Part shown: piece by piece, positions 4,376 to 54,828 of the stretch | How the letters are laid out: each line of letters begins with the position of its first letter | Numbering within the stretch: the stretch's first letter is position 1 | From: Patescibacteria group bacterium | GTDB lineage: Bacteria; Patescibacteriota; WWE3; JAUXAW01; JAYEID01 | NCBI GenBank assembly: GCA_034659915.1 | Contig: JAYEID010000002.1 | Location: 2,089 to 66,088, forward strand | DNA: 64,000 nt | Reading direction: 5' to 3' | The notes under the pieces: generated by a model | Database searches by the model: none | Seen by the model: the letters and a program-made list of their open reading frames with translations, nothing else | Told to the model about the DNA's origin: nothing | Made by a program: the position numbers and the translations under genes

Positions 4376-4513
4376 AATGGGGAGTAGCGACGTTTACGCT
4401 GCACTCCACAATCCGCGGGAATCCAGTACAAATCAGCGAAAATCCGTAACAACTGCGGAATGCGGAAAGCTGTGTGCGGATAACCGAAACCACAATAGTT
4501 AACTAGTACAATT

Positions 4514-9001: not shown

Positions 9002-9061
9002 AAAACTCCAAATTGTCTCTTTAAACAGTTTTTTTTTTGAGAATAAATCTTTTTAATTTTT

Positions 9062-24662: not shown

Positions 24663-24668
24663 ACTATT

Positions 24669-24926
24669 ATGTTCTACGTTTATGTATTGCTGAGTGAAAA
24701 AGATGGTAAACGTTATATTGGTTATACCGAGGATTTGAGAAAGCGCGTTAAGGAACATAATTCAGGTAAAGTTAAATCAACCAGACATCGAAGACCTTTA
24801 CACTTGATTTATTATGAGGCTTGTCTAAATAAGAAAGATGCGAAGGCGAGAGAAAAGTATTTGAAAGGTGCGTGGGGATATAAATTTTTGGACAAACGCC
24901 TTAAGAATTTCTATGAAAGTTTATGA
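24669..24926 (+). CDS. GIY-YIG nuclease family protein (85 aa, catalytic domain only)
   Basis: FYVYVLLSEKDGKRYIGYTEDLRKRVKEHN matches the GIY...YIG...R...E...N motif set. Starts 7 bp after the stop of the 1293-aa gene. Confidence 0.8.
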   Translation: MFYVYVLLSEKDGKRYIGYTEDLRKRVKEHNSGKVKSTRHRRPLHLIYYEACLNKKDAKAREKYLKGAWGYKFLDKRLKNFYESL

Positions 24927-24965
24927 ATTTCGGGGGCAAGTATCCCCGAATTTTGGGACAAAATT

Positions 24966-25083
24966 CTTGGGGTGGCCCCAGAGGCTCTTTTATCTTGGAC
25001 TTTTAATTAGTAGTGTAACTTTGCTGGGTTGCTTGAGTTATCTAGGTTATGCTCTCGTAACTAACGCTAATAAACGCGAATGA
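24966..25083 (+). pseudogene. orphan gene fragment paralogous to the C-terminal TM anchor of CDS 20781..24662
   Basis: Encodes GWPQRLFYLGLLISSVTLLGCLSYLGYALV, against PQRLFYLGLLISSLTLVGCVSYLGFAV at the end of the 1293-aa protein. DNA differences are mostly synonymous or conservative. The upstream part of track ORF 24868..25083 overlaps the GIY-YIG gene out of frame. Confidence 0.45.
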
Positions 25084-25116
25084 CTGCGCGAATTCACGCG
25101 AAATCTATAAGCAGTA

Positions 25117-27331: not shown

Positions 27332-27401
27332 TTTTTTTTGTTATTTTCTATTCCTTATTTTCTATTTCCCATTTCCTATTGATTATGCTATAGTTACGGT
27401 A

Positions 27402-27968
27402 ATGAAGCGATTGCTGGCGGTGACATTTTTGGGGCTCTTTTTTGCTGGGGATGTGTATGCCGGGGAGATTTTGGAGGAGGCGGCGCGGGTTTCCGGGGAA
27501 TTTGGCCGTAAAGATATTAAGCTGGCGGAAGAAGCCCAGGCGGGGGGGATTTATAAACTTCCGTCCATTTCAGTAAAAAATACAGGAACCAACGAAGAAC
27601 GGTTCCAGGTTGACATTGTCTTTTTGGGTAGTGAGGGAGAAGGCTCTGGTGTTTCCTGGCTTAATGTGGAACCTTGGCGAATCACGCTTGACGCGGGAGA
27701 GGAAGCGGATGTAAAGCTGGGGCTAAAAGTTCCTGCCGGGGCGCGGGCAGGGGAATATAATTATCACTTAGAACTTAGGCGGGTATTGGAAGACGGCAAG
27801 GCGCACCCCAATCCGATGGATACTGCCGATATTCGGTTTAATGTGGAGGAGGGAAGTTTTTTTTCTGCAGTGAAGAGGAGGGTATCTTCTTACTTTAGTG
27901 CTAACCCAACGATGAGTCTTGTGGTTGCAGGGATTTTAATAGTTATTGCCATTAGTTTTCTTTGGTAA
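27402..27968 (+). CDS. secreted protein with signal peptide and C-terminal TM anchor, function unknown
   Basis: MKRLLAVTFLGLFFAGDVYA signal-like N-terminus. C-terminal hydrophobic segment MSLVVAGILIVIAISFLW. Confidence 0.45.
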   Translation: MKRLLAVTFLGLFFAGDVYAGEILEEAARVSGEFGRKDIKLAEEAQAGGIYKLPSISVKNTGTNEERFQVDIVFLGSEGEGSGVSWLNVEPWRITLDAGEEADVKLGLKVPAGARAGEYNYHLELRRVLEDGKAHPNPMDTADIRFNVEEGSFFSAVKRRVSSYFSANPTMSLVVAGILIVIAISFLW

Positions 27969-27969
27969 G

Positions 27970-28140
27970 ACGGTGTGGAAGATACTGGATAAGAAATAAG
28001 AAATAGGGAATAATGGATAATGAATAGGAAATAAGAGATAAGGAATAATAAATAAGGGATATAGGGAATAAGAAATAGGGGATAGGGAATACTAAATACT
28101 AGATACCAAATACTAAATACCAAATACTGAATACGATTTA
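27970..28140. repeat. purine-rich degenerate repeat block (GGAATAAG / AATACTAAATAC units), mirror of 2330-2660 block
   Basis: gataagaaataagaaatagggaataatggataatgaataggaaataagag... Similar blocks at 27335-27400 (CT-rich) and 28530-28610 (AG-rich). Confidence 0.6.
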
Positions 28141-28533
28141 ATGGTGAAATTTATAAAAATCATAAAGACAAAGATCAGAAGTTTGTTTGCGTTAATTAAG
28201 GGTAAGTTGGGGCCGTTTCGTTACTATCTTTTGGCATTTACAGCCCTCGGGATTTTTGTGGATACCTTCTTTTTTGACTTTACCTCTGATTTGGTTATTT
28301 TGTTTTTTATTTTTCTTTGGATTATGGCAAGCTGGCTTTTTTCTTTTGAAGGGAGGGTTTCGGTGGGGGTTGGCCTTGGGTTCTTGGTGCTTTGCCCCTT
28401 TCTTTTAATTTTTAAGGCGGATTTTATTGCAGAAAAGGCAGCTGTTTGGGCGTATATGTTTCTTTTGGTGGGTGTTGTACATGAAATCATTGAGTTTAGG
28501 GAGGAAAGAACGCAGGAAGCAAATACTAAATAG
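28141..28533 (+). CDS. small hypothetical membrane protein (130 aa)
   Basis: Three predicted TM helices. Embedded between repeat blocks. Weak. Confidence 0.3.
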   Translation: MVKFIKIIKTKIRSLFALIKGKLGPFRYYLLAFTALGIFVDTFFFDFTSDLVILFFIFLWIMASWLFSFEGRVSVGVGLGFLVLCPFLLIFKADFIAEKAAVWAYMFLLVGVVHEIIEFREERTQEANTK

Positions 28534-28639
28534 TAAATAGTAAATAATAAATAAGAAATAATGAATAAAAAATAGGGAATAATGGATAAGGAATAAGAAG
28601 ATACGTTGTTCCATTGTTCTAGGGCTCGATTGCTAGATA

Positions 28640-28922
28640 CAAACGTTAATGAACGCGAATACTACAAACACGAATCTACGCGAATCAAAAGCGAATAAAC
28701 GCGAATGTAGATTATTGGTGTACTAGTTAGCTGGGTATGAAAAGAAACCTAAGCTCCCGTCATTCTGGAACGGAGGTTGTCAAGGCGGAGTGATAGAATC
28801 TCGGCCCAAAGGGCCGGACGGGAGCGGATAAAAGGAAGACTCTATCAGGCTCGGGGGACCGAGCCTTCCAGAGTGACTGCCTTTTTGTACAAGTTACTAG
28901 TTACGAGTTGCCAGTTACTAAA
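28640..28922. repeat. intergenic composite: G-family ACGCGAAT repeats (28640-28710), hairpin-rich segment (28745-28885), H-family AGTTACTAGTTAC repeats (28888-28922)
   Basis: The same G and H repeat families recur inside CDS 29007..30950 (29826-30088, 30787-30822) and after genes at 25065-25105, 32642-32696 and 33388-33490. Confidence 0.55.
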
Positions 28923-29006
28923 TACTACATACTAAATATTAAATATTAAATATTAAATAGGGATATCAAGTAATGGGTTGCTAACTATTAACTACCAAAA
29001 AAACCA

Positions 29007-30950
29007 ATGACCTCGCAATTCAAAAAAACACTCCTTTTTATTATTATTTTTTCCTCGATTTTCCTTTTTTACTTTTCTCCGCTTGTGTTTAATGTATTTG
29101 GTTCAAGAACTTTGGGTTATTGGGGCGACAAGTTGGGGTTAATTGCCCGCTTGAGGGAAGGGCGCATCGGCTTTTTGAATCAACCTGCGTTACGCTTGAT
29201 GATTGGAATTCTTCGATCGGGTTTTTCTCCTTTTGGAGTTTATAATTTTTTGGTTCTTTTGAGTTTTCCTTTGACCTGCTTTTTTTCTTACCGGTTTTTC
29301 TGTAAAGTTCTGGGCAACGGAAAGACCCTTGAAAACAATAAGACCCGTCCTTCAGGAAAGGACGGGTCTTTCTATCTCTGTGGGGATGGGGGTTTCCTCT
29401 CTTTTCTCTCCTTTGTGCTAGCATTGATTTTTACTTTTTCCCCTTATCATATTTATAAAAGTTATAACCACGTTGACCTTGCGCAGATTTGGGTTTTTCC
29501 TCTTTTCTTTTCTGCGCTTTTGGATTTTGATTATGCAATTAGAAAACGTTTTTTGAGCAGTCATCCTGATCCCGACTTATCGGGAGAAGGATCTACTGCG
29601 AGGGACCTATACAGCAGGGGATTCTTCACCCCCGACAGGTCGGGGGTTCAGAATGACGAGGGAAATATTGTGCAAGCTACTTTGAGGCTTTCTGTTGTGA
29701 TGGCGGGGACGACGTTGATTTCTAATTATTATGGATACTTTACCTTGCTGATAATTGCGATATATTTCACTATTGAACTTTTACGAAATATTGAGAAATA
29801 TGTGCATAGATTTGAGTTATCAGCTACTGATTTACGCAGATTGATAACGGATTTACGCCGATTGTTGAAAACGAACGCTAATCAACGCGAATTGAAAACG
29901 AATATACGCGAATTGAAGAAGGATTTTCGCGGATGGATAGCTGATTTACGCCGATCAGAGGATTCACGTGGATTAATAGCTGATTCACACAGATCGGAAA
30001 ACGAAATGCCGAATGCGGATGGCGGAATGCGGATGGCGGAACGCGGTTTACAAATTACCAGTTACCTGTTACTAGTTGCAAGTTACGTTCTTTTCACCGT
30101 TCCTTTTTTGCTGCCCTATATACGCGGGATTTATTTTGGGGATACTGGTGGTGATGAAGTTGTAGCTCGGGTGGCAACTGGTGTTTCTCGGCGAGATGTG
30201 ACGGATTTTGTGGCTTTTTCCGCGCGGCCGTGGTATTACATTGTTCCCTCTATTGACCACCCTATTTTTGGCAACTTTGCTCAAGGTGTACACGACTGGT
30301 TTGAAAGCACGGGATACTTCCTTTTTGATGATTTTTTTTGGGAAGAACATTCGGCGGTCTATTTAGGAATAGTTAATTTAATTTTGACAGGTTACGCTAT
30401 ATATAAGTTATTCTGGGCAAAAAGAACCGCCGAATGCGGGGTAGAAAATAATGAATATGGAATAAGGAAAGAGGAGGAAATGGTAGATGATAAATTGCAA
30501 ATTTCGAACAATGAAAAAAATGGCAGGGGTACTAGTTACGATCCGCCAGCTGGCGGAACGAATTACATTTCTCTCTTTTTCTGGCTTGGGGTTGGTCTGT
30601 TCATTCTTTCCATGCCGCCGTTTATTTCGTTGGGTTTTGCAAAAATTTATTTACCTTCTTATCTTTTGATGAAGGTCTTTCCGATGTTTAGGACAATTTC
30701 TCGCTTGGGGCTTCCTTTGCTTCTTTGCGTTTTGGTTCTTACCGGCTACGGTTTACAGTTGTTGAAGGAGCGATTTTCTCTTTCTCGTACTAGTTACTTG
30801 TTACTAGTTACCAGTTATTGTTTCCTAGCGCTCTTCGAATTCTACTTCCCGCCGGTGATTAAAAAGGTTCCTCCCGGAGGGTGGCGAATTGATTTCGATA
30901 TTATTTCCGAAAATCCAGAGGTGCGTGAGGTGAATATTATTGAAGAGTAA
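29007..30950 (+). CDS. multi-pass membrane protein (GT-C-like) with a mosaic of in-frame repeat insertions
   Basis: TM-rich N- and C-terminal portions. The central segment is built from F-family hairpins (29568-29648), G-family 'gatttacgc/acgcgaat' repeats (ATDLRRLITDLRRLLKTNANQRELKTNIRELKK...), GCGGAATGCGGATGGCG repeats, H-family repeats, and a family-C hairpin at 29340-29372. Confidence 0.5.
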   Translation: MTSQFKKTLLFIIIFSSIFLFYFSPLVFNVFGSRTLGYWGDKLGLIARLREGRIGFLNQPALRLMIGILRSGFSPFGVYNFLVLLSFPLTCFFSYRFFCKVLGNGKTLENNKTRPSGKDGSFYLCGDGGFLSFLSFVLALIFTFSPYHIYKSYNHVDLAQIWVFPLFFSALLDFDYAIRKRFLSSHPDPDLSGEGSTARDLYSRGFFTPDRSGVQNDEGNIVQATLRLSVVMAGTTLISNYYGYFTLLIIAIYFTIELLRNIEKYVHRFELSATDLRRLITDLRRLLKTNANQRELKTNIRELKKDFRGWIADLRRSEDSRGLIADSHRSENEMPNADGGMRMAERGLQITSYLLLVASYVLFTVPFLLPYIRGIYFGDTGGDEVVARVATGVSRRDVTDFVAFSARPWYYIVPSIDHPIFGNFAQGVHDWFESTGYFLFDDFFWEEHSAVYLGIVNLILTGYAIYKLFWAKRTAECGVENNEYGIRKEEEMVDDKLQISNNEKNGRGTSYDPPAGGTNYISLFFWLGVGLFILSMPPFISLGFAKIYLPSYLLMKVFPMFRTISRLGLPLLLCVLVLTGYGLQLLKERFSLSRTSYLLLVTSYCFLALFEFYFPPVIKKVPPGGWRIDFDIISENPEVREVNIIEE

Positions 30951-30982
30951 CGAAGCGGGGAGCGGAGTGCGGAAAAGTTATT

Positions 30983-32656
30983 GTGCTAATATACATAACA
31001 ATGCGTGATTCACAGAAAGTTTTTTTATTACTTTGTTTTTTTACAGCGCTACGGATAGCTCTTTTTGATGTAAATGCTTGTGAGTGGGGAGATTCATATC
31101 GAGTTCTTGCTAGCGCAAAAAGAATTTCCGAGCTTTCCTTTCCTTTAGAAAATTTTCAATTACCTTTCTTCTCTGCTTTTATTGCTCCTTTCCTTTTCAT
31201 TTTTAAGCCTTTGGTTGCTGGAAGATTGGTTGCCGCCTTGGCTAGTTTTGTGGTTTTAATTCTTTCCTACGAGGTTTCCAAAAAAATATTTCCTGAGCGC
31301 GATTTTCACATTTGGGTACCTGTTATTTTAGCCCTATCTCCAGTTTTCTTTTATTGGTCGCTACGGATAACCTCTATCACCATTTTTACTGCGCTTGTGC
31401 TTTTAGCTTTTTACCTTTTTTATGATTGGCGGGTGGATCTAGTTCCCCGTTTAATTAAGGAAGATCCTCCCCTTCTTAACTATATTTTTATTGGGCTTGT
31501 TATTGGCTTGGCTTGTCTTACCCGGAGAGAAGGAATTTTGCTTTTACCCGGTTTTCTTTTTTATTTTCTTAGACAAAAAAGATGGGTAGAAACAATTCTT
31601 TTTATTTTTGCTTGGGCAGTTGTGGTTTTGCCTTTATTTTTTGGTGGTAGTTTTGTTTTTGCAAATTTTTCTCCTAACACTTTTCTCGCTGACTTATTTT
31701 CTTATCAAGTTGTAACTTGGAATTGGGTTTGGTTTTTTTCCCTTTCTTATCTTTTCTTGTTTATATTTCCGCCCTTTTTTGTGTTTGTTTTTAAAGGTGT
31801 GTTTTCTTTTTTGGAAACTACGCGAGATATGTTGGTGCACTTCCCTCTTTTTGCTTTTATTCTCTTGTTAGAAATTTTGGTTCTCTTGCTTTGGACTTTT
31901 TCTGTTCCCTTAGTTTTGATTCCTTTAATGCCGTTGATTTTACCCTTCTTTTTGGAAGGTGTGGAGAAAATTTTTGCAAAACAGGATGGAGTTGTATTTA
32001 GAACTTGTATTCTTGTGCCTTGGTTTTTTGTTAGTTTGGGTTTGTTTGTGCTGTATATTGTCGGACAGTATTATGTGCGTTCCTATTTTCTTGTTCTTTC
32101 TCGCGGGGGATTGGTACTTGCTTTGGCTTTTTCTGCCTTAGCTTTAATTGCCCTTTTTATTCAAAATGCTGAGAAAGGGCGTAAACTTTTCTTTGCTTCT
32201 TTAGTTGCTGCTTTATCTGTTTCTTCCTTCGTCGTGATTGGAAATCAACGCAAGGTCTATGCTACTGTAGCAAGTTTGGCAAAGAAAGCTCAGAGTTTGG
32301 AAGGTAGGGTTGCCTACTCAGATGAAACTGGTGTTTCTTGGTGGTATTTGGATATCCAAAGCGATAAGGGTGTTTATTATGAGCAAGATATGAATTATGA
32401 AGAGGATGAACAATGGCAGTGGTTGAAGGAGAACAATATTCATTATCTTTTGTGGACCACAGAGTTTAATCGGGGTAGTGTTTTAGATATTGTGAATGCA
32501 GATAATTATAAAGATAGATTTGAACTTAAATTCCAGCGCGAACAAGAGATTGCAGATGCTATTGATACCTTTTTAATTAGACAAGGTGTTTTGCCGGAGA
32601 GGGAGTATCCGGAGTTGGAGAGTAGAATATATGAAGTAAAATCGGATTTACGCTGA
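30983..32656 (+). CDS. multi-pass membrane protein, GT-C-like (PMT/ArnT-related?)
   Basis: At least 12 TM helices with a C-terminal soluble domain. No insertion elements noticed. Confidence 0.5.
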   Translation: MLIYITMRDSQKVFLLLCFFTALRIALFDVNACEWGDSYRVLASAKRISELSFPLENFQLPFFSAFIAPFLFIFKPLVAGRLVAALASFVVLILSYEVSKKIFPERDFHIWVPVILALSPVFFYWSLRITSITIFTALVLLAFYLFYDWRVDLVPRLIKEDPPLLNYIFIGLVIGLACLTRREGILLLPGFLFYFLRQKRWVETILFIFAWAVVVLPLFFGGSFVFANFSPNTFLADLFSYQVVTWNWVWFFSLSYLFLFIFPPFFVFVFKGVFSFLETTRDMLVHFPLFAFILLLEILVLLLWTFSVPLVLIPLMPLILPFFLEGVEKIFAKQDGVVFRTCILVPWFFVSLGLFVLYIVGQYYVRSYFLVLSRGGLVLALAFSALALIALFIQNAEKGRKLFFASLVAALSVSSFVVIGNQRKVYATVASLAKKAQSLEGRVAYSDETGVSWWYLDIQSDKGVYYEQDMNYEEDEQWQWLKENNIHYLLWTTEFNRGSVLDIVNADNYKDRFELKFQREQEIADAIDTFLIRQGVLPEREYPELESRIYEVKSDLR

Positions 32657-32702
32657 TCTGCCTCATCGGCAGACAAGTTGATAGCTGATTCTCGCCAATA
32701 TT

Positions 32703-33383
32703 ATGGATCTTTCTGTAGTGGTACCTGTTTATAATGAAAAAGAAACTATTGAGGAAGTTATTAGTAGGGTCCAAGCATTACCTTTGGAGAAAGAGATAAT
32801 CTTGGTTGATGATAATTCTACCGATGGTTCAACTGAGATTTTAAAAAAGTATCAGGAGGAGAGAAACATTAAGGTGGTGTTTTTTTCTGAAAATAGGGGA
32901 AAGGGTATAGCTCTTAGGGAGGGGTTTGAACACGTTTCTGGTTTGTATACTGTGGTGCAAGATGGTGATTTGGAATATGATCCCCGGGATCTAGTAAAGA
33001 TGTATGAATTTGCCAGGGAGAAAAATGCAGATGTGGTTTATGGAAACCGGTTTTGGGAAGAAGGAAAACCAGAAGGAATGGCTTGGGGAAATTATATTTT
33101 TAATTTAGTACTGGCTAAGCTGGCTACTGTTTTGTATGGTCGAAAAATTAATGACGCTGCTACCTGTTATAAAATGTTTAGGACGGAGTTTTTAAAAAGC
33201 TTGTCTTTGGAGTGTAGGGGCTTTGAGTTTTGTTCCGAAGTTACTGCCAAGTCCCGATTGCGCGGAAAAAGGATTTATGAAGTGCCTATTTCCTATACAC
33301 CGCGAACTGTCTGCGAGGGAAAGAAAATCCGCCCGTGGCATGCTCTTGATTTTTTCTGGGCATTGTTGAAATATAGGTTATGA
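32703..33383 (+). CDS. GT2 polyprenol-phosphate glycosyltransferase (Dpm1-like dolichol/undecaprenyl-phosphate mannosyl- or glucosyltransferase)
   Basis: LSVVVPVYNEKETI...ILVDDNSTDGS...VQDGDLEYDP, with no TM tail, like soluble Dpm1-type enzymes. Confidence 0.75.
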   Translation: MDLSVVVPVYNEKETIEEVISRVQALPLEKEIILVDDNSTDGSTEILKKYQEERNIKVVFFSENRGKGIALREGFEHVSGLYTVVQDGDLEYDPRDLVKMYEFAREKNADVVYGNRFWEEGKPEGMAWGNYIFNLVLAKLATVLYGRKINDAATCYKMFRTEFLKSLSLECRGFEFCSEVTAKSRLRGKRIYEVPISYTPRTVCEGKKIRPWHALDFFWALLKYRL

Positions 33384-33571
33384 GGTTAGCGAATTGGTAT
33401 GGCTAATTTACGCGAGTTTAATAGCGCGAATTAATGCGAATAATCAGTAGTAGGAAGTAGCTAGCAACTAACACCTAGTAATTAGAGACTTGGCTTGCCG
33501 GTAGGTACTGACAGTAGTGTGTTTTTATTAAGTCAGTTTACTTTATCAATTATAAAAAACTGCATGAGATA

Positions 33572-35161
33572 GTGAACAATAGCCGAAAGACACTTTTATT
33601 AACAGGATTTATTTTTTTAATTTTTTTCATTCCTCGTGTTATTTCCCTAGGTCAAAGTATGGTTTCGGATGGGGGGGCGCGTTTCTGGCAGCCGCGGTCT
33701 CGTGAGTTTAGGCAGGCGGTGTTGGAAGGTGATTGGGAATCAACCTATCGCAAATACCACCCGGGGGTAACTGTTATGTGGCTTTCTGGTTTTTCTGAGC
33801 ATCTGTTTGAGAAAGCAGCTGAGTTTAAGCTGGGACGTAATTTACGAAACGAACCTCGCTACGAACCTTATCGCCAAATTGCTTTGAAGCTGCCTTTGGT
33901 GTTTGTAATTTCAGCAGTGGCAGCTTTTTGTTTTTATTTGCTTAGAAGCGTAGTTGATACTGGATTTGCGTTTTTAGCTTTACTCTTTCTTTGTTTGGAA
34001 CCCTTTTTCCTAGGTATTAGTAGATATGTGCATGTTTCTGCTTTGGTTGGAATATTGCCTTTTGCAGTTTTAGTAGCAGCTTATCTTTATCTAAAAAAGG
34101 GGGAGTGGGTTTATCTTATTTTAGCCGGGGCATTTTTTGGCTTATCTGTGATGACTAAAATTGTTGGTGTGGTGGCGGGGGTTTCAGTTTTTGTTCTCTT
34201 TTTAATTTTGCGTAAATTTTGGGAACATTTTAAAAATAAAGATTTTTGGAAGCAGTATATTTTGGAGATGCTAGTTTTTGGTGGTATTGCACTTCTGGTT
34301 TTCTTTTTGTGTTTTCCTGCTGTGTGGATGGATGTAATTGGTGTGTGTCGGCGAATAATAAATGAGGGTGCTATGGGAGTTGCGTTTAGAGGTATTCGCC
34401 CGGATATGATTGTTGATTCAGATTTTACTTATTATTTGGAGATTTTTATTTTCCGTTCAACTCCTGTGGCTGTTTTCTTTTTCTTTTTGTCCTTCTATTA
34501 TCTTTTGAGTGCTAAAGAAAGTGAGGAAAAGAGATTTTCGCTAGCTGCGTTGATTTTTTATGCAGTGACCTGGTTTGCTCTTTCTTATCCTTCAAAGTTA
34601 AAAGATCGGTATTTGGTTGATCTTTATCCATATACTTCTGTTTTATCTGCATACGGGGTATGGGAACTTACCAAGAATTGCGGCAAAAAATTAAAAGTTG
34701 TTCTTGGTTGTGTTGCTGTGTTGTTTTATGGTTCTATTTTTGTGCGTTATCATCCTGAGTATTCTTTTTATTATAATGATGCTCTTGGCGGTGCTGCTGG
34801 GCGCGAGGAACTGGGGCTTTCAGTTAAGAACCGAGGCGAGTATTATGCTCAAGTTGCTACTTATTTAAATAGCTCGGCTCCGGAGCCCGAGATTTGTAAT
34901 AAAAATGCAGTTGTTCTTGATCGGGAAAGAATACCAAGCTTTAAAAACCATTTTATGGGTAAAACATTTTCTGATCCTTCTAATATGCCTGATGGTTATC
35001 ACGCCCACTATTTTGTGACTGATGCTAGATATATTTCTCAAGTGCCGGAGACTTGCTCTTTAATTAAAGAGTTTGGTCCCCGCTTTTATCCTCGGCATAC
35101 TGCATTGTATGTATATGATTGCGGTAAGTCTATAGACAATACTTATGATACTTCAAATTGA
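33572..35161 (+). CDS. GT-C-like membrane protein, tandem paralog A (YRKYHPGVTVMWLSG / MPDGYHAHYFVT signature)
   Basis: Shares N-terminal (HPGVT[VL]MW[LI]SG) and C-terminal (MPDGYHAHY[FI]VT) blocks with 35145..36761 and the HPGVTLMWIG block with 43204..45036. Confidence 0.5.
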   Translation: MNNSRKTLLLTGFIFLIFFIPRVISLGQSMVSDGGARFWQPRSREFRQAVLEGDWESTYRKYHPGVTVMWLSGFSEHLFEKAAEFKLGRNLRNEPRYEPYRQIALKLPLVFVISAVAAFCFYLLRSVVDTGFAFLALLFLCLEPFFLGISRYVHVSALVGILPFAVLVAAYLYLKKGEWVYLILAGAFFGLSVMTKIVGVVAGVSVFVLFLILRKFWEHFKNKDFWKQYILEMLVFGGIALLVFFLCFPAVWMDVIGVCRRIINEGAMGVAFRGIRPDMIVDSDFTYYLEIFIFRSTPVAVFFFFLSFYYLLSAKESEEKRFSLAALIFYAVTWFALSYPSKLKDRYLVDLYPYTSVLSAYGVWELTKNCGKKLKVVLGCVAVLFYGSIFVRYHPEYSFYYNDALGGAAGREELGLSVKNRGEYYAQVATYLNSSAPEPEICNKNAVVLDRERIPSFKNHFMGKTFSDPSNMPDGYHAHYFVTDARYISQVPETCSLIKEFGPRFYPRHTALYVYDCGKSIDNTYDTSN

Positions 35162-36761
35162 TAAACTTAAATCTGGGTTGGACCAAAAACGATTGCTAAT
35201 TTTGTTAGTTTTTTTAATTTTCTTTGTTCCCCGGATTGTTTCTTTGGGCTGGGATCTTACTAATATTGATGCGCACCATTGGCGGCCAAGAATGTGGAAT
35301 TTTTGGGAGGGTTTGGAAAGTGGTAACTTTGGAAAAACTTATCAAAAGTATCATCCCGGTGTTACCTTAATGTGGATTTCTGGTAGTTCTGAACGAGTTT
35401 TTGATCATCTAAGTGAATTCTTATTGGGTTACAATACTCGTAATCTTCCAAAATGGTATCCTTACCGACATTTTGCAGCTAAAGCTCCTTTAGTAATAGT
35501 TATCTCTATTTTAGGTGCCTATTGCTATTTTGTGTTAAAGAAAGCTACAACTAGCACATATGCACTTATATTTTCTATTCTTCTTTCACTTGAACCGTTT
35601 TTTCTTGGTGTTAGCCGTTATTTGCATCTTTCTGCGCTAACTTCAATGTTTATGTTTAGTTCCTTTATAACATTGTATCTTTACACTTTAGAGAAGAAGC
35701 GGTGGCAGTTTGTGCTATCCGCAGTTTTTTTGGGATTGGCAGTATTGACTAAAGTTAATGGGGTGATAGTGGCTTTTACTAATGCGCTACTTTTAGTTTC
35801 TTCTTGTTTTGATTCTCTTGATGATCTGGGCGATTTTTCCAGGTGGAAAAAGTTTTTTGTTCGGGGTTTTGGTTATGCTGCTATTTCTGTTTTTGTATTT
35901 TTTGCTCTTTGGCCCGCAATGTGGGTAGAGCCGCTTGGTGTTGTTAGAAAGATGCTGGATAAGGGTATTGGAGATACTGCTTTTGATAGTGATGGCGCGG
36001 TTATGCTTGTCCCTACCCGCTATTTGTTTTACTTTGAAACGTTTTTCTTGCGTTCCTCACCAATTACTGCTTTGTTGTTTGTTCTTTCTCTGCCTTTAGC
36101 ATTATTTTCTGATTCAGATTTAAAAAACATAAAAAAGCTGTTGCTTTTCTCCCTTTCTTTCCTTTTCTTTAGCTGGTTGTTTTTGTCTATTCCTGATAAG
36201 GTAAAGGACCGCTATTTAATTTCTATGTACCCCGCGTTTTTTGTTTATATTAGTTTTGCTTTGTATGAAATATTGCAACTAGTTCCCAAGCGTGCTGCGG
36301 TTTTAATTTTATTTTTCTTGGGGTCTTATTATGGCTTGACTATTTATAGGTATCACCCACAATATTCTTTTTACTGGAATGATGCTATTGGTGGTCAGCA
36401 CGGGTTAAAGGCTCTGGGCTTGCCAACAATTCGAAGGGGGGAGTATTTTTATCAAGCTGCTTTTTATATAAATAAACTAAGTGATGAGCCGCGAGATAAA
36501 AATACTGTTATTTTTAACTTTGGTATGGAGCCTTGTTTTAAATTTGCTTTTTATGGCAAGACTTTTACAAGTTGGGGTTTTATGCCTGATGGATATCATG
36601 CCCATTATATTGTAACCAGTCCTGAGTATTTGGATAAAGTTCCGTCTTTTTGTGAGTTTAAGAAGACGTTTGGTGTGCGTTCTCCCAATCCTTATCCAGC
36701 TGTTAGAGTTTTTGAATGCGGGAAGAAGATAGATAACACTTTCGAAGAGGAAGATACCTAA
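35145..36761 (+). CDS. GT-C-like membrane protein, tandem paralog B
   Basis: YQKYHPGVTLMWISG...MPDGYHAHYIVTSPEY. Overlaps paralog A by 17 bp. Confidence 0.5.
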   Translation: MILQIDKLKSGLDQKRLLILLVFLIFFVPRIVSLGWDLTNIDAHHWRPRMWNFWEGLESGNFGKTYQKYHPGVTLMWISGSSERVFDHLSEFLLGYNTRNLPKWYPYRHFAAKAPLVIVISILGAYCYFVLKKATTSTYALIFSILLSLEPFFLGVSRYLHLSALTSMFMFSSFITLYLYTLEKKRWQFVLSAVFLGLAVLTKVNGVIVAFTNALLLVSSCFDSLDDLGDFSRWKKFFVRGFGYAAISVFVFFALWPAMWVEPLGVVRKMLDKGIGDTAFDSDGAVMLVPTRYLFYFETFFLRSSPITALLFVLSLPLALFSDSDLKNIKKLLLFSLSFLFFSWLFLSIPDKVKDRYLISMYPAFFVYISFALYEILQLVPKRAAVLILFFLGSYYGLTIYRYHPQYSFYWNDAIGGQHGLKALGLPTIRRGEYFYQAAFYINKLSDEPRDKNTVIFNFGMEPCFKFAFYGKTFTSWGFMPDGYHAHYIVTSPEYLDKVPSFCEFKKTFGVRSPNPYPAVRVFECGKKIDNTFEEEDT

Positions 36762-36915
36762 CTAGCCTCTGTTTTTCTTCAAAAAATTTTACCGGCGAGT
36801 TTAAGAATATGTCTTTATTTTAAAGATATGTATAGGCTGGATTTATAGCGAGGGATGTCTTATAATATTAGTTACTGTCTTTGGCAAGGTTACTTGTTCA
36901 ATTAGGAGGTGGGAA

Positions 36916-37242
36916 ATGGGTACGCCGGTTGAGACCATTGGGGATTTTACCGGGCTTGTAGCGACGCCCGAGTGGAGATGGGAGATGGGGTTGTCGGAGG
37001 GCGCAGCGCTCCTTATTATCCGTGTTGTGGGTATACTTCAACGTGCGCCTTTGGATCGCTTTGGGGATAGTGTCGCTTTGAGTGCGGCACTTCCCGATAT
37101 TAGGAGCGCTGTAGAGGATTTTAAGGACCGGAGCTCGGAGGGAGATCTGCTTATGGAAAAGGTACTTTCCGCAAGTGGTGATCCGGGGGAAGAAGCTCTG
37201 GATTTTTTGGATACTTTGGAGGTGAAGAGCGCGTACTGCTAG
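36916..37242 (+). CDS. hypothetical protein (108 aa), GC-rich relative to locus
   Basis: Strong Shine-Dalgarno AGGAGGTGGGAA immediately upstream of the ATG. Composition is atypical for the window. Confidence 0.4.
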   Translation: MGTPVETIGDFTGLVATPEWRWEMGLSEGAALLIIRVVGILQRAPLDRFGDSVALSAALPDIRSAVEDFKDRSSEGDLLMEKVLSASGDPGEEALDFLDTLEVKSAYC

Positions 37243-37325
37243 TTCCGGTAGGGTAGGAGGAAAGGTGTTTGTTGTCTATTTCGAGAAGGTTAAATTAGGA
37301 ACCGGAAGGACCGGCTCACTAACAG

Positions 37326-38090
37326 ATGGAGGGAGATTCGATGAGTGCTGTAGAGGAGAGGTTCGACGTCTGTGCTGCGCTTGGGGAAAAGCAAAGGATG
37401 TTTGACCCTAACGTAGGAGAATGGTTTGAGTTTTTGGTAACTGACCCGCTTATTATATGTGCACCTGCGCAGTTTTGGTATGTGCAGAGGGTCTTTCCAC
37501 ACTGGTTGGCAGATCTCGAGGTAGCTGGTTTGCGCGTTTTGGGGTGGGAAATACCCGAACCTGGAGCTTATCTAACCGAATCGCGCCAGTTTAAACCAAG
37601 AGGTCTTTACGGGGCACGGACAGAGGTCAACTTTTCAGTTAAGTTGGCAACGCAAGGTGCAATTCGTGACATGGGCGTGGAAGACGATAATGTGGTGACA
37701 GGGGTTGTGAGCCTTGTTCGCAAGAAGTTCGCACTTTTTGTGCTAGAAAAGTACCCACTACCTTTCGATCCATTGAATCCTCTTTACGAAGCGGAGTCAA
37801 GAGTAAGTCTTTTTGGTGGGCTCCCGCGTGCTTCAGTAGAGGAGCTGGAATTGTGTAGGTTCAAGGAGTTTCTAGATGAGGAAGGCGCTGCGTTGCTTTC
37901 CTTTGAGACTAGAAAGTACAATTATTCGTCGAGTGTGATGCTCTTTGAGGGAGCTTTTACTTGGCACCATCCTTTTTCCGAGCTAGCTATTATGGGAGTT
38001 CGGAGGCGTGCGGGGGAATGGTTGGGAAGAAAGTCGCGACTTAAGCATCCGATCCGGGAGTTCCATTTGGATTTTGAGTCACCAAGGTAG
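37326..38090 (+). CDS. hypothetical protein (254 aa), GC-rich relative to locus
   Basis: Long ORF with no motifs recognised. Adjacent to RAYT-1. Confidence 0.4.
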   Translation: MEGDSMSAVEERFDVCAALGEKQRMFDPNVGEWFEFLVTDPLIICAPAQFWYVQRVFPHWLADLEVAGLRVLGWEIPEPGAYLTESRQFKPRGLYGARTEVNFSVKLATQGAIRDMGVEDDNVVTGVVSLVRKKFALFVLEKYPLPFDPLNPLYEAESRVSLFGGLPRASVEELELCRFKEFLDEEGAALLSFETRKYNYSSSVMLFEGAFTWHHPFSELAIMGVRRRAGEWLGRKSRLKHPIREFHLDFESPR

Positions 38091-38164
38091 AGCTGAGTAG
38101 CGAAGAATATATTGCCGGAGTTTTGGACGTTCGCGTCCCGGGCTCCGGCCTTTTTTTGCGATAT

Positions 38165-38198
38165 GAAAGGACGATATGAAAGGACGGGTCTTGCGAGC
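38165..38198. repeat. family-C half-site (GAAAGGACGggtcttgcgagc with local 13-bp duplication), right-hand inverted terminus flanking RAYT-1
   Basis: gaaaggacgatatgaaaggacgggtcttgcgagc. Its reverse complement matches 38883-38903 (gctcgcaagacccgtcctt). Confidence 0.75.
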
Positions 38199-38219
38199 TA
38201 CTGTTTTTATAGGAAAAAG

Positions 38220-38873
38220 TCAATCTAGCATTAAATATTTCAGATTGAGTTTTTCTGGTTCGGTTATTGGGGCTTCTGTGAATTTCTTGTATTCTACGTT
38301 TTTTGGTTCTGGGAGTTGGTCCAGTGTAGGATTGGTATTGATTAGGTTGTTGGGTTCATTGCCAATGTAAATGTGATAGCTGGACCACGGGTAATCTTCT
38401 GGGTTTCTAACTATGCCGGATTGACACGGGTTAAGATGAATATATCTGGAGAGGTTTAGTAAATCTGCATCGTCTGCTACCTCGCGTGCTTTAAATCTTC
38501 CTTGAAAAAGGGACCCGACACGCTCATATTTTTGATTGAAGTACATTACATAAGTGGTGCCAATTGTTCTCATAAAGTTACTTATGCTTTTTTCTTGGTC
38601 TAGTTGTTTGAGGATAAAGTGGAAGTGGTTGGGCATAAGTGTGTAAGCAATTAGACTAACTTTTTCTCTAAATTTGCCCAAGTTGGAAAGTCCCATCCTT
38701 GCGGAAAGGACGGGACTTTCCTTTCCCTTTTCTCTTAATATTAAATAGTATCGGAGTATGTTTGTGAAGTTTTTATAATCGGCGTAATCTACAAAAATTG
38801 TACGCTTTTCAACTCCGCGGTTGTAAATGTGGTAGTAGCCACCTTTGTGGAAAATAGTTTTTCGATAAGGCAT
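38220..38873 (-). CDS. REP-associated tyrosine transposase (RAYT; IS200/IS605-like HUH Y1 transposase)
   Basis: GYYHIYNRGVEKRTIF (TnpA_REP N-motif), HUH motif MPNHFHFIL, and C-terminal RYIHLNPCQSGIVRNPEDYPWSSY (catalytic Tyr plus NP...WSSY). It contains its own family-C hairpin at 38686-38722. Confidence 0.8.
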   Translation of the reverse strand: MPYRKTIFHKGGYYHIYNRGVEKRTIFVDYADYKNFTNILRYYLILREKGKESPVLSARMGLSNLGKFREKVSLIAYTLMPNHFHFILKQLDQEKSISNFMRTIGTTYVMYFNQKYERVGSLFQGRFKAREVADDADLLNLSRYIHLNPCQSGIVRNPEDYPWSSYHIYIGNEPNNLINTNPTLDQLPEPKNVEYKKFTEAPITEPEKLNLKYLMLD

Positions 38874-38882
38874 AAGATTAAG

Positions 38883-38918
38883 GCTCGCAAGACCCGTCCT
38901 TGCAAACGTCCTTGCAAA
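38883..38918. repeat. family-C half-site (gctcgcaagacccgtcctt plus duplicated cgtccttgcaa), left-hand inverted terminus flanking RAYT-1
   Basis: gctcgcaagacccgtccttgcaaacgtccttgcaa. Inverted relative to 38165-38198. Confidence 0.75.
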
Positions 38919-38921
38919 ATA

Positions 38922-41036
38922 CTATTCGCAGAGCGTTTTGCCGTTTGGGTATGTACTTTCTTTCCCGTAGATTTTGGTTATTGGGTGGTTAGCGATGAAG
39001 TATGTTTTTAGTTCTATGTAGCTATCCAGAGTTTTGTCTAGACTTTCGTAGTACCAGCTGATAGGAGCCTCGACTATAATTATATTATCTGCGTCTTTTT
39101 CAAAAACGTTTTCTTGGTCTGCAATTGGTTCTTTTCCAAGGTAAAAAGCGGGAATGCGAGCCTTCTCGTTGGTACTGTAGCTCCCTGTTAAACAACCGTT
39201 TTTGTAAAGCTTTGCTATCTTTTCCCAACCACGTCTGTGTGGGAAACCAAAGATTCCTTGGACTTTGTTGGCAAGATTTTTGTCAATACTAATCATTTCT
39301 CGACCAAAAACTTTTTTACTTCCCCACATATATTCGGGTCTTTTTTCGACGAAGATTTTGTGGTTGTAGGTTAGCGTTGTAGTAGTAATATAGATACCGA
39401 CTAATACTGTAATAAGTTGGACTGCCCGCCCAATTCCCCAGAACCAGGTTCTGGGACCGGTCTTAGAACCTGATTCTTTTCCTTGGCCAGCTCTAGACTT
39501 TGCGTTGAGAAGGGAAAAGGTTTTCGCAATCGTATAACCTGAAAGGATAAACAAGGGGATAAAGATAATATAAACATGGGTGCGGGGAGTTTTGTTGAAG
39601 AACAAGTAAAAACAAGAAGAAGCTAGAAACCAGGCAAAAAGGCTGGCTTTGATTTTATCAATTTTTGGGGTAAAGAAAAGAACGCCAAGGGTAATTAGGG
39701 TTAAAGTGTAAAACATTAAAGTGGATCCGCGCGGTTTGATCCATTGGGTAGAAAACCAGAAGGTGAAAATTAAGGTAACAGGTAATAGGTAATAGGTGAT
39801 AGGGATTAGTTTGCGGAAGGCGGAGAGCGGTGTGCGGAAAGCGGATGTATTTTTGAGAAGAGGGAATTGAGAATTGCGAATGATGAAATATAGAGAAAGG
39901 CAAGAAAGAATTACCAACGCAAAAATCATCTCTTTCGGCATATAGAATTTCATAAGAATTTTGCTATAAAGGGTGCGGGGCATGAAACCACTCCCTAGGA
40001 CTCTTCTTTGCAAATAGTTTGAGGTTTCTCCGGCGGTGGAGTTTAGAAAAAAGGGAACGTAGAAACTTGCTGTTAGAATTAGAAAAGGTGTGAAGAAGGC
40101 TAGGGCTTTCTTTTTCCAAAATCCAAGCTTTATAGAATTGCAGTCATTCTGAGGTCTCCCGGGCTGCTGGGAGGCCGAAGAATCCTCTGCTGTATGCTGC
40201 GTGCTTTGTTGTAGGTGGTCTTTAGTCGCGGGGGATTCTTCGTCGTTTGGAGACTCACTCCTCAGAATGACACGGGATATTAGATCTTTTCCGAAATAGA
40301 AGCAAATAAAGGCAAGGAAGGTTAGCGCGTCGTAGTGGGCGAGTACTGCAATTCCGAAGAGTAATCCGGCTAAACAAAAGTAGCCGCATTCCCCAGCCCC
40401 TGGGGCTGCAGTCAAAGAAGCCCCAGGGGCTTCTCCTGCGGCGGCCGGGGAATCGCCCGGCTTTGATTTTATATTTGCAATTCCAAACAACGATCCTGCT
40501 AGTGGAAGCTGCCCAATTCCCCAGAACCAGGTTCTGGGACCGGTCTTAGAACCTGGTTCTTTTCCTTGGCCAGCCTTTTTGTTCTCAACAGCAAGGAGAA
40601 ATAAGATAATTAAACCAAGTAACAACTGCACAAAGGCTTGGTATTGGGTAATCCTTGAAAAAGCAATGAACAGACCGTTAGTTCCTGCTAGTGCTGCACT
40701 AAGTATGCCTGCCCAATTGTTTTTTGTGAGCTTTCGTGTAACTTCGAAAAGTACATAGACAAAGGCAATACCAGCAAGGGCGTAAGGCAGGCGAATTATC
40801 CATTCTTCCCAGGTACCTGTTAAGTTATATGTCAACCAATTGATAACAAATTGTAAAGGGCCTTTATCGCGGCTCAGGAGGTATTGAATAAAGCTGCCCT
40901 GAAAGTAACGGAAGTCTAGAGTAAGAATTTCGTCACCTTGGTATTCCGCGTATCCTAAATCCTGCAACCGAACCCAGGCGGAGTAGGCGAGCGTGATGAT
41001 AAGTGTTATCTTTTGTGTTAGTTTTAGTTTTTTCAT
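38922..41036 (-). CDS. multi-pass membrane protein (GT-C-like) carrying two family-B and one family-A in-frame inserts
   Basis: TM-rich throughout. The peptide AGQGKESGSKTGPRTWFWGIG occurs twice, encoded by family-B elements at 39431-39490 and 40514-40573. AAAGEAPGASLTAAPGAGECG is encoded by a family-A element at 40384-40444. Confidence 0.5.
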   Translation of the reverse strand: MKKLKLTQKITLIITLAYSAWVRLQDLGYAEYQGDEILTLDFRYFQGSFIQYLLSRDKGPLQFVINWLTYNLTGTWEEWIIRLPYALAGIAFVYVLFEVTRKLTKNNWAGILSAALAGTNGLFIAFSRITQYQAFVQLLLGLIILFLLAVENKKAGQGKEPGSKTGPRTWFWGIGQLPLAGSLFGIANIKSKPGDSPAAAGEAPGASLTAAPGAGECGYFCLAGLLFGIAVLAHYDALTFLAFICFYFGKDLISRVILRSESPNDEESPATKDHLQQSTQHTAEDSSASQQPGRPQNDCNSIKLGFWKKKALAFFTPFLILTASFYVPFFLNSTAGETSNYLQRRVLGSGFMPRTLYSKILMKFYMPKEMIFALVILSCLSLYFIIRNSQFPLLKNTSAFRTPLSAFRKLIPITYYLLPVTLIFTFWFSTQWIKPRGSTLMFYTLTLITLGVLFFTPKIDKIKASLFAWFLASSCFYLFFNKTPRTHVYIIFIPLFILSGYTIAKTFSLLNAKSRAGQGKESGSKTGPRTWFWGIGRAVQLITVLVGIYITTTTLTYNHKIFVEKRPEYMWGSKKVFGREMISIDKNLANKVQGIFGFPHRRGWEKIAKLYKNGCLTGSYSTNEKARIPAFYLGKEPIADQENVFEKDADNIIIVEAPISWYYESLDKTLDSYIELKTYFIANHPITKIYGKESTYPNGKTLCE
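39431..39490. repeat. family-B palindromic element (CCAGGTTCTGGGACCGGTCTTAGAACCTG), in-frame in CDS 38922..41036
   Basis: caattccccagaaccaggttctgggaccggtcttagaacctgattcttttccttggccag. Copies at 40514-40573 (same gene) and 55030-55090 (plus-strand gene). Confidence 0.8.
40384..40444. repeat. family-A element in-frame in CDS 38922..41036
   Basis: ccgcattccccagcccctggggctgcagtcaaagaagccccaggggcttctcctgcggcgg. Confidence 0.85.
40514..40573. repeat. family-B element, second copy in same CDS
   Basis: caattccccagaaccaggttctgggaccggtcttagaacctggttcttttccttggccag. Confidence 0.8.
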
Positions 41037-54342: not shown

Positions 54343-54380
54343 GTTTTATGAAGTTCAAATTTCAAAATCCAAATATCAAA

Positions 54381-54775
54381 TGAATGACAGATGTCAAAAT
54401 TCAAAGAAGAGCTATTATGATCTTGAGGAGAGAACAGCTAAATTTGGAGAAGCTATTATTGATTTTGCTAGAAAGATTAAAGTGGAACAATAAATAGAGT
54501 GTTGGTTAGTCATGTGGTTAGAGCAGGAACGAGCATTGGGGCAAATTATATGGAGGCTGATGGTGCAGAGTCAAAAAAAGATTTCAAGCATAAAATAGCT
54601 TTGTGTAAGAAGGAAGCAAAGGAAACAAAGCATTGACTGAGAATGATTTCAAAAGCAGCGCCACGCTACTCTAAGCAATGTAAAGTTCTTTGGCAGGAGG
54701 CACAGGAATTAACTTTGATATTTTCAGCTATTTTGCTAGGTAAGAAGAAAAAGTAAGGGTTTTCTGTTTTGTAAT
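54381..54775 (+). pseudogene. degraded four-helix-bundle ('23S rRNA intervening-sequence protein') gene
   Basis: Fragments MNDRCQNSKKSYYDLEERTAKFGEAIIDFARKI (stop), then in another frame VRAGTSIGANYMEADGAESKKDFKHKIALCKKEAKETKH(TGA)LRMI...LLGKKKK. This matches the family signature GSSIGANIAEA...KDF..KL.IA.KEA.ET.YWL.L but is interrupted by a frameshift and an in-frame TGA. Confidence 0.5.
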
Positions 54776-54828
54776 TTGGGTTTTGACATTGAATTGACAT
54801 TTGAGCTTTTTAATTTGAAATTTTTCCA

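Follow-up and report, generated by a model that had tools for sequence, protein, structure and literature searches.

Rickettsia palindromic elements (RPE) are short repeats that lie both between and inside unrelated genes, in the latter case in frame, so that translation adds loop peptides that the protein fold accommodates (Ogata et al. 2000, as summarized in PMC10969869). The repetitive extragenic palindromic (REP) sequences and REPINs are linked to a Y1 transposase gene, the REP-associated tyrosine transposase (RAYT), which has inverted repeat cores on both sides (PMC3116915). Genes for four-helix-bundle (S23p) proteins are the cargo of the intervening sequences (IVS) of 23S rRNA, described in PMC4990558 as selfish and patchy across phyla. 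Here, we analyzed 64,000 nucleotides (nt) of a Patescibacteria group bacterium of the WWE3 lineage (contig JAYEID010000002.1, positions 2,089 to 66,088; the window), centering on a gene for a 647-amino-acid (aa) membrane protein and on two repeat families, G and H, that occur within and around it. We think it probable that this region holds short repeats of several classes, selfish or neutral, filtered within genes to in-frame, stop-free copies in loops, much as in the RPE of Rickettsia.

The 647-aa product had no match in Pfam, and its predicted structure gave weak Foldseek matches in the Protein Data Bank to the GT-C enzymes AftA, ArnT, and Pmt4 (E, 0.08 to 0.4), which weakly and tentatively suggests a GT-C-glycosyltransferase-like protein. 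The surrounding genes mostly concern envelope glycosylation (PMT_2, GT2). Ten homologs were found; the nearest metagenome-assembled genomes (MAGs) are labeled uncultured Candidatus Saccharibacteria, and others are labeled WWE3. The order 647-aa gene, PMT_2, GT2 is common to the three loci whose contigs reach beyond the gene (L001, L002, and L010), and L010, a second assembly, is 100% identical to window positions 28254-39457 over 11.2 kb.

Comparison with the ten orthologs, by alignment and at the codon level, resolved four extra or expanded blocks in the coding sequence (CDS): a C-family hairpin, F-family hairpins, the G block, and a mosaic in loop 4 (Table 1). Orthologs are 506 to 518 aa long, and the window protein exceeds P0002 and P0004 by 129 to 141 residues; ∼22 to 27% of it is repeat derived. 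A preliminary description of this DNA had portrayed the gene as an in-frame mosaic of repeat-derived DNA, about 25% of its length, and had proposed an ortholog comparison as the test; that comparison bears out both the share and the insertion or expansion of the G, C, and F blocks, with the C and F hairpins lying inside blocks absent from all 10 orthologs. The core of Insert 1, AAGGACGGGTCTT, is identical to the flanks of a RAYT-like gene elsewhere in the window, and partial copies of the F-family hairpins of Insert 2 occur at 4344 and 40143-40195. Loop 4 is variable in every lineage. In the AlphaFold (AF2) model (predicted template modeling score, 0.74), the protein core and both helices encoded by H are modeled confidently. 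Predicted local distance difference test (pLDDT) scores fall below 50 on the inserts, at the residues listed in Table 1 and at aa 286-304 and 317-347; low-confidence stretches outside the inserts are aa 379-396, 441-444, and 625-647 at the C terminus.

The G block is translated as ATDLRRLITDLRRLLKTNANQRELKTNIRELKKDFRGWIADLRRSEDSRGLIADSHRS, and over 225 nt (29826-30050) it has no stop in the CDS frame, as the preliminary description had held for the repeat stretch, whereas the other two forward frames have 8 and 4 stops and the reverse-strand frames have 8, 1, and 1. It is absent from seven more distant orthologs (P0004-P0011) and present in the two closest (L001 and L011) with other unit composition and length. 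The loop in the window consists of G2' twice, G1 twice, G2 twice, and G3; that of L001 has G1 and G3 only, and that of L011 has a single G2 unit, GCTACGGATTTTCGCGGATTAATAGCGGATTCTCGCCGATCGG, clearly homologous to the first unit of the window. Read from these sequences, the pattern appears to be that of an array growing, shrinking, and diversifying in frame-preserving steps. Between the window and L001, the encoded peptides diverge and the DNA core ACGCGAA is kept, and the reading frame of the same G DNA changes from gene to gene, with RELKTN encoded in the 647-aa gene and NAD in a 1,293-aa gene. AlphaFold predicts one long helix (aa 273-319) over the block, most of which has a pLDDT of <50, and the 76-aa G peptide, used as a query against proteins, gave no match at an E value of ≤10, an uninformative outcome. 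Separately, the loops of ortholog P0003 (L011, 98-1996) are full of other small in-frame hairpins (CCGCCAGCTGGCGG, GGCGGGCCAGTGGCCCGC, GCGCGGACTAAAGTCCGC, and others), so the habit of in-frame repeats is lineage-wide.

The H segments of the CDS have a different history. Both align without gaps to transmembrane (TM) helices of every ortholog (KSYLLLVTSYLLL in P0004 and GYLLLMIFYLLL in P0005), and the DNA for these helices is heptamer or 21-nt periodic in every lineage examined, with differing units. The first begins as the H end of an array whose register is constant and uninterrupted from G3 onward, likewise in L001, and it encodes the start of a conserved TM helix. The preliminary description gave the right coordinates for G followed by H (29826-30088) and for the second H (30787-30822) and took H to be an inserted repeat and G and H to be two modules; in the CDS, G3 and H are a single 11-unit heptamer array. 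It had also allowed that conserved counterparts in orthologs would mark an internal segment as ancestral, and for H every ortholog has such a counterpart. The H segments of the CDS are thus ancestral coding sequence rather than insertions.

Table 1. Features of the window discussed in the text, with the evidence for each (TRF, Tandem Repeats Finder; PWM, position weight matrix)
Feature	Position(s)	Strand	Evidence
CDS of 647 aa, polytopic membrane protein	29007..30950	+	Conserved gene order with PMT_2 and GT2
Insert 1, ∼27 extra residues, with C-family REP-like hairpin at 29340-29372	29304..29399	+	Without counterpart in 10/10 orthologs; pLDDT <50 at aa 105-127
Insert 2, ∼43 extra residues, with F-family hairpins at 29568-29648	29532..29672	+	Without counterpart in 10/10 orthologs; pLDDT <50 at aa 188-215
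G block proper: G2' (2 x 21 nt, 29826-29870), G1 (2 x 21 nt, 29871-29918), G2 (2 x 39 nt, 29919-29997)	29826..29997	+	Lag-21 autocorrelation 0.52; six PWM matches of 12-22 bits
Single heptamer array from G3 (GAATGCG/GATGGCG) to H (AGTTACN), 11 units	30011..30087	+	Sequence, TRF
Loop-4 mosaic: G-like piece, AT-rich heptamers AATAATGAATATGGAATAAGG, CAAAT-type arm fragment AAATTGCAAATTTCGAAC, H remnant, hairpin CCGCCAGCTGGCGG	30430..30565	+	pLDDT <50 at aa 477-516
Second H array, encoding TM helix TSYLLLVTSYCF kept in all orthologs	30787..30822	+	pLDDT 88-95
ACGCGAAT copies	25074, 28653, 28678, 28699, 29885, 29906	all +	Motif count
GATTTACGC exact copies	29829, 29850, 29943, 32645		Motif search
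Further G module, not in the preliminary description: reverse G2 units, then forward GCGGAAT heptamers drifting to H-like ATAGTTAACTAGTAC	4411..4513	.	PWM, clusters
G1 units (AACGCTAATAAACGCGAAT...) ending a displaced duplicate of the 1,293-aa gene 3' end	25063..25104	+	Motif search
AT-rich heptamer array (AAATANT)	28521..28599	+	TRF periods 7/14/21
Intergenic G1 array, five CGCGAAT-type units, all forward	28640..28712	+	Spacings of 10-15 nt, 21 nt per two units
Hairpin-rich piece	28735..28885	.	Folding z-score -3.3 (+ strand), -4.4 (- strand)
Heptamer array, unit drifting from H-type (TACTAGT) to TATTAAA	28885..28959	+	TRF; lag-7 autocorrelation 0.74
Two forward G2 units around hairpin CTGCCTCATCGGCAG	32637..32699	+	PWM 24.3 and 15.0 bits
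G-like units, then degenerate inverted H-like heptamers	33388..33480	+	Sequence; motif search
RAYT-like Y1 transposase open reading frame (ORF) 38220-38873, with inverted C-family half-sites on both sides	38160..38922	-	PF01797, NF047646, flanks
Four-helix-bundle (PF05635) pseudogene within inverted CAAAT-type heptamer arrays	54343..54828	+	Domain match, arrays

Across the window (∼39% G+C), the motifs of both families are far more frequent than chance allows. The G-type motif ACGCGAAT has 6 copies compared with 1.0 expected, and AGTTACTAGTTAC, with up to 2 mismatches allowed, has 16 compared with 1.3; G-type motif clusters number 8, against 0.44 in simulated sequence. Tandem Repeats Finder returned 30, 10, and 5 rows at periods 7, 14, and 21, compared with 2.6, 0.7, and 0.1, respectively, in simulated sequence. 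Chance therefore accounts neither for the G and H motifs, which the preliminary description had singled out, nor for the period-7 arrays. G is a 21-nt-period array made of two ∼10.5-nt units with the core ACGCNRAT, and its units occur in spacers (28640, 32637, 33388, and 4411) as well as in the 647-aa, 1,293-aa, and 704-aa ORFs. H is one flavor within a much wider heptamer-array phenomenon, whose units include TACTAGT, ATAAGAA, AATACTA, TATACAG, and others. Of the intergenic DNA, 10.5% lies in arrays, compared with 0.74% of the coding DNA, a 14-fold enrichment in spacers. The whole window had no match in Rfam at the gathering threshold, positions 28400-33600 had none at an E value of ≤1 except two chance microRNA matches, and no tRNA or tmRNA was found in the window.

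The preliminary description had further placed paired G and H modules after four genes. One of these stands: 28640-28922 has clear G units and then clear H units, with a 150-nt hairpin-rich piece between them. The sites at 25065-25105 and 32642-32696 hold G units only, and at 33388-33490 the G-like units are accompanied by H only as a degenerate inverted 13-mer (33457-33469). When H is defined strictly, an H locus lies no more than 120 nt away from 3 of the 11 G clusters, compared with 0.22 expected (P ∼0.002); two of the three pairs (29835-29956 and 30015-30043) lie in the same CDS stretch, which leaves two independent loci. The association of G with H is real but loose, and a G element next to a heptamer array is not general, with only 6 of 125 metagenomic G2 elements having a period-7 array within 150 nt. 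The modules had also been proposed as possible terminators, and none of the 17 terminator-like sites (a hairpin and a T run) overlaps a module; the hairpin CTGCCTCATCGGCAG has no T run after it.

The hairpin-rich piece of the first module matched nothing in Rfam and has a single copy in the window. To its left lies GTACTAGTTAGC and to its right GTACAAGTTACTAGTTAC, the two parts of a split H-type array into which the piece was apparently inserted. Just upstream of this module, the AT-rich heptamer array begins in the 3' end of ORF 28141-28533 and provides its stop codon, and the first G2 unit of the pair around CTGCCTCATCGGCAG overlaps the stop codon of ORF 30983-32656. The intergenic G1 array has no counterpart in the orthologous spacer of L001. 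Comparison of the window with L001 shows no conservation of spacer arrays apart from ∼45 nt that precede the start codon; downstream of the GT2 gene, the inverted H-like stretch keeps its position.

The 1,293-aa ORF (20781-24662) carries in-frame G-type and AT-rich heptamer stretches at 23938-23992, 24120-24240, and 24465-24510, translated as ENADIDTENADADTDNAD, ADNTDGETDNAERDEGKIGNSEEDKGYGIGNN, and CADADICTENADG in a frame that differs from that of the 647-aa gene. At 24530-25110, an 85-aa GIY-YIG ORF (24669-24926) lies between two diverged copies of the 3' end of this gene (75% mean column identity); the upstream copy completes the gene, and a G1 array closes the downstream one. The arrangement looks like a homing-endonuclease-type insertion that would have brought in or duplicated the gene end.

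Units of the G family are also found well beyond the window. A G2 search pattern taken from units of the window itself (two GATTYWCGCNGAT units at a spacing of 21 nt) matched at least 120 metagenome contigs and no viral contigs. With a 16-base G1 pattern, we obtained 55 viral matches that look like chance or unrelated coding repeats and were set aside. Among 112 nonredundant metagenome copies, the commonest layout was n forward followed by n reverse units (FFFFRRRR), a palindrome of ∼88 nt with the unit consensus TTAACGCAGATTTACGCAGAT, ends of the form AACGC...GCGTT, and A/T-rich flanks. A CTGCC..GGCAG hairpin stands beside the G2 units in 3 of the 112 elements, a weak signal. A position weight matrix built from the metagenome arms found 13 sites in the window, compared with 0.43 in simulated sequence; among them are 24465, 32637, 32679, and 4411/4432.

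In at least 10 independent loci, an ORF of the GxxExxY family (TIGR04256, E ∼1e-36; Pfam PDDEXK_3, PF13366) lies exactly between the forward units upstream and the reverse units downstream. The palindromes share their arms with these loci and thus look as if they derive, with loss of the ORF, from a longer element, perhaps in the way that a miniature inverted-repeat transposable element derives from an autonomous one. The window G arrays named in the preliminary description have forward units only and no terminal inverted repeats, and they are one-armed or fragmentary, ORF-less forms. Our literature searches on the G sequences and on GxxExxY found nothing relevant, and a paper on insertions in rRNA genes of the candidate phyla radiation makes no mention of G or heptamer elements.

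Metagenomic copies of G also enter genes. Nineteen of the 112 copies (∼17%) are in frame inside long ORFs, defined by at least 60 codons on each side of the copy, and the hosts identified with Pfam include TyrRS/TrpRS-type, IleRS, LepA, RecG, GatB, PurL, and MnmG proteins. Fourteen of the 19 use the frame N[LPQ]R[EK]SA, compared with ∼27% of open frames, a preference that exceeds stop avoidance; the window copies are read in a frame and strand less common than those of most in-ORF copies. Twice, the whole element of forward units, GxxExxY ORF, and reverse units is nested in frame: in LepA (L051, 4663-7092), inside the GTP_EFTU domain, and in RecG (L088, 613-2079), immediately N-terminal to the matched helicase C-terminal domain. 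These two loci resemble inteins and free-standing homing endonuclease genes, in that a nuclease-fold ORF sits in frame at loops of LepA and RecG. They differ in that Pfam scans of both hosts found no Hint or splicing domain, only a nested PDDEXK_3; the insert is apparently retained in the protein, and most copies elsewhere have no ORF. An IleRS gene (L022, 1646-5122) carries an in-frame G2 palindrome and a nested His_Phos_1 domain at aa 494-670.

Heptamer arrays likewise occur as inverted arms. The PF05635 pseudogene of the window, which itself spans 54380-54760 and has internal stops, lies within inverted CAAAT-type arrays, and CAAAT-type arms surround a four-helix-bundle ORF in L091 and L092 as well. 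The same arrangement was seen in 4 of 5 homolog loci, from MAGs labeled Nitrospirae, Falkowbacteria, Thermodesulfovibrionales, and Chloroflexi; the fifth locus ends at a contig end. A search with the four-helix-bundle protein gave 7,986 matches at an E value of ≤1e-10, with 64 to 73% identity across phyla among the matches listed, and inverted heptamer-array pairs are common in the metagenome loci that we fetched. Fragments of CAAAT-type arms are present in loop 4 of the 647-aa gene and in a GT1 gene (61522-61552), where they encode KLQISNNEKN and KLQISNDKAD, and a heptamer palindrome of ∼135 nt (53800-53935; AAATCCT units, spacer, AGGATTT units) is in frame in ORF 52843-54342. These loci recall the 23S rRNA IVS (PMC4990558) in having a PF05635 ORF within inverted repeats. 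They differ in lying between or inside protein-coding genes rather than in rRNA and in having heptamer arrays as arms, and the G-armed relative carries a PD-(D/E)XK-like ORF instead.

Other inverted heptamer arrays were observed in the window and its relatives. ORF 27402-27968 (188 aa, with a signal-peptide-like N terminus) lies between inverted AT-rich arrays at 27342-27380 and 27989-28134. At 2176-2253, an array reverses at its center (TATACAG... to ...CTGTATA), forming a 78-nt palindrome in perfect register with abutting arms, and a similar palindrome occurs in L001 (4049-4168).

Heptamer repeats with small dispersed repeats nested in them, known as short tandemly repeated repetitive (STRR) sequences, were reportedly described in cyanobacteria by Mazel and coworkers in 1990 and by Elhai and coworkers in 2008. 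The window arrays are like these in being 7-nt tandem arrays at many loci, mainly in spacers and with many unit variants, and in having small hairpins nested in them (the 28735-28885 piece and CCGCCAGCTGGCGG in loop 4). The units are presumably unlike those of STRR1 to STRR3 of heterocystous cyanobacteria, and the phylum differs. We know of no description of in-frame genic arrays or of inverted arms around small ORFs for STRR.

The C family can be linked to a transposase gene in the window itself. The RAYT-like ORF matches PF01797 with 34.6 bits, above the cutoff of 23, and NF047646 with 68 bits (E 6.5e-19), below the NCBIfam cutoff of 80. It is flanked by inverted copies of AAGGACG...AAGGACGGGTCTTGCGAGC, and the core AAGGACGGGWCTT is invariant across C-family hairpins, that of the 647-aa gene among them. 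Based on this shared core, the C hairpins appear to be the REP/REPIN-like elements of the RAYT-like gene, which is likely their mobilizer. The likeness to REP/REPIN-RAYT systems (PMC3116915) thus lies in a Y1 gene with inverted repeat cores on both sides and in dispersed hairpins that share the core. The difference is that the C copies are inside ORFs rather than extragenic (29340, 38688, 42485, and 63759; 4 of 4 in long ORFs), and one of them (38688-38724) interrupts, in frame, the N-terminal part of the RAYT-like ORF. G and H are not hairpins of the REP type.

A double-hairpin family, AGCCCCWGGGGCT (∼58 nt), has copies at 2982, 3215, 3278, 40384, 42368, 42770, 43817, 51309, 61225, 61768, and 63529. 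All are inside long intact ORFs (radical SAM, PMT_2, and GT1/GT4), again unlike extragenic REP sequences, and the Pfam matches of the hosts are split in two.

We propose that repeats of several classes, typical of the lineage, were deposited in this region and that copies landed in or spread into coding DNA. G units would be relics of what elsewhere form the inverted arms of the ∼88-nt palindromic element, whose full-length form would carry the GxxExxY (PD-(D/E)XK-like) ORF, presumably for the mobilizing nuclease, and the heptamer arrays would correspond to the inverted arms around four-helix-bundle (23S-IVS-type) ORFs. To survive in genes, copies would have to lack stops, measure a multiple of 3 nt, and lie in loops where the structure tolerates them; arrays would then lengthen or shorten by 21 or 39 nt, keeping the frame, possibly by slippage or unequal recombination. 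The outcome would be a membrane protein that exceeds its orthologs in length by ∼25% and whose loop insertions are disordered or modeled with low confidence, their peptides presumably being translated and tolerated. The likeness to RPE (Ogata et al. 2000, as summarized in PMC10969869) is that the window repeats are dispersed in spacers and unrelated ORFs, in frame, and that the element itself has no transposase; the intragenic copies, the two H segments excepted, are insertions relative to orthologs that keep the frame. The host lineage is another one, and there is presumably no sequence relation. G (10.5/21 nt) and H (7 nt) are tandem arrays, compared with the single palindromes of 100 to 150 bp of RPE. 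The G arrays in the CDS and at 28640 are nonpalindromic, palindromes being found only in the metagenome relatives and in the C and F hairpins. In addition, G has a candidate full-length form with a GxxExxY ORF, whereas an autonomous RPE is not known.

A broader proposal, which we offer tentatively and regard as somewhat doubtful, is that G-type and heptamer arrays are the arms of undescribed small mobile elements, with GxxExxY or four-helix-bundle proteins as cargo, that are widespread in uncultivated bacteria. Such elements might enter loops of conserved genes (IleRS, LepA, RecG, GatB, PurL, MnmG, and the 647-aa gene) and be kept in mRNA and protein without intron or intein splicing, their ORF-less and one-armed remnants making up much of the "simple-sequence" DNA of these genomes.

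Several observations weigh against filtered deposition of mobile repeats. No consistent target-site duplication was found at the ends of the metagenome elements and no pair of empty and filled sites was found for G or heptamer arrays, the mobility of which is accordingly presumed. Neither a GxxExxY gene nor a palindromic (forward plus reverse) G element occurs in the 64-kb window, and the link of the window G units to the element family is drawn from a short degenerate motif and its spacing. Some of the matrix matches are circular, the pattern having come from window units; this does not apply to those at 24465, 32637, 32679, and 4432. L010, the second assembly, does not differ from the window, and therefore no copy-number variation can be read from it. 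Not every repeat-like stretch is an insertion, as the ancestral H segments of the CDS illustrate. Autocorrelation also reveals a 21-nt super-period in heptamer arrays outside genes, which the frame filter does not account for.

The converse explanation, that the internal G/H stretch is old coding DNA that seeded the spacer copies, holds for H and is improbable for the stretch as a whole. Both H stretches are TM helices in all orthologs and are heptamer or 21-nt periodic even in distant ones, and an intergenic H array (28888-28920) lies just upstream of the 647-aa gene. Against a coding origin, G is lacking in 7 of the 10 orthologs and variable in the others, G-type units occur in the 120 or more unrelated metagenome contigs, mostly intergenic, and have been seen in genomes without the 647-aa gene family, the frame in which the same DNA is read differs between genes, and H-type and other heptamer arrays abound in spacers of both the window and L001. 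We consider it equally improbable that the G block is a selected protein module whose 7-residue period (DLRRLIT/DLRRLLK/...) forms an amphipathic or coiled-coil helix extending a cytoplasmic or surface loop. The predicted helix, the match of a 21-nt period to a heptad, and the frame preference of in-ORF copies elsewhere (beyond stop avoidance) are in its favor; the low pLDDT over most of the block, the seven orthologs without it, and the different, rarer frame and strand in the window are not, and the peptides diverge freely among the window, L001, and L011 as the DNA motif persists.

It is unlikely, although conceivable for the spacer copies, that the arrays are functional cis elements, be they RNase III processing stems (as in rRNA IVS), helically phased 10.5-bp protein-binding sites, or terminators. 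Their spacer enrichment, the inverted arrays around ORF 27402-27968 and around four-helix-bundle ORFs, the positional conservation of the inverted H-like stretch in L001, and the presence of four-helix-bundle genes as cargo of 23S rRNA IVS (PMC4990558) would all suit such a role. It is hard to reconcile with modules that coincide with no terminator-like site, with spacer arrays that are otherwise unconserved, with the single direction of the window G arrays, and with copies in essential genes that keep an open frame, where excision would break the mRNA. Phase variation, in which one 7-nt unit gained or lost in a surface glycosyltransferase-like gene would shift the frame, is highly improbable: the unit length is no multiple of 3, the host genes concern envelope glycosylation, and heptamer simple sequence repeats are known in phase-variable loci (PMC4692102), yet the CDS arrays are imperfect (72 to 86% matches, with differing units), which disfavors slippage, the H arrays encode conserved helices, and L010 has no frameshifted allele. 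Each of these alternatives fits some of the observations, and none fits all of them. Deposition of several repeat classes, with in-frame, stop-free copies retained in loops, therefore remains the probable account of the region.

Elsewhere in the window, positions 8000-14000 form a block of low G+C content (26 to 33%, compared with ∼40% elsewhere) with seven consecutive genes on the minus strand, which may be an acquired polysaccharide gene cluster.

Compared with RPE, what is new here is that the repeats are arrays of tandem units rather than single palindromes and that G is tied to GxxExxY elements and heptamer arrays to four-helix-bundle elements. For metagenome annotation, such inserts inflate gene length, split domain matches, and yield spurious "hypothetical proteins." Pressure against junk DNA is commonly taken to be strong in uncultured bacteria with small, streamlined genomes, and here at least three repeat systems lie inside intact genes, with one protein lengthened by about one-quarter. 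To our knowledge, the origin of heptamer arrays has gone unexplained since the cyanobacterial STRR sequences. If the links between arrays and ORFs reflect mobility, they would offer a possible origin for such arrays and would give a role and a context to two very large protein families, GxxExxY and the four-helix-bundle proteins.

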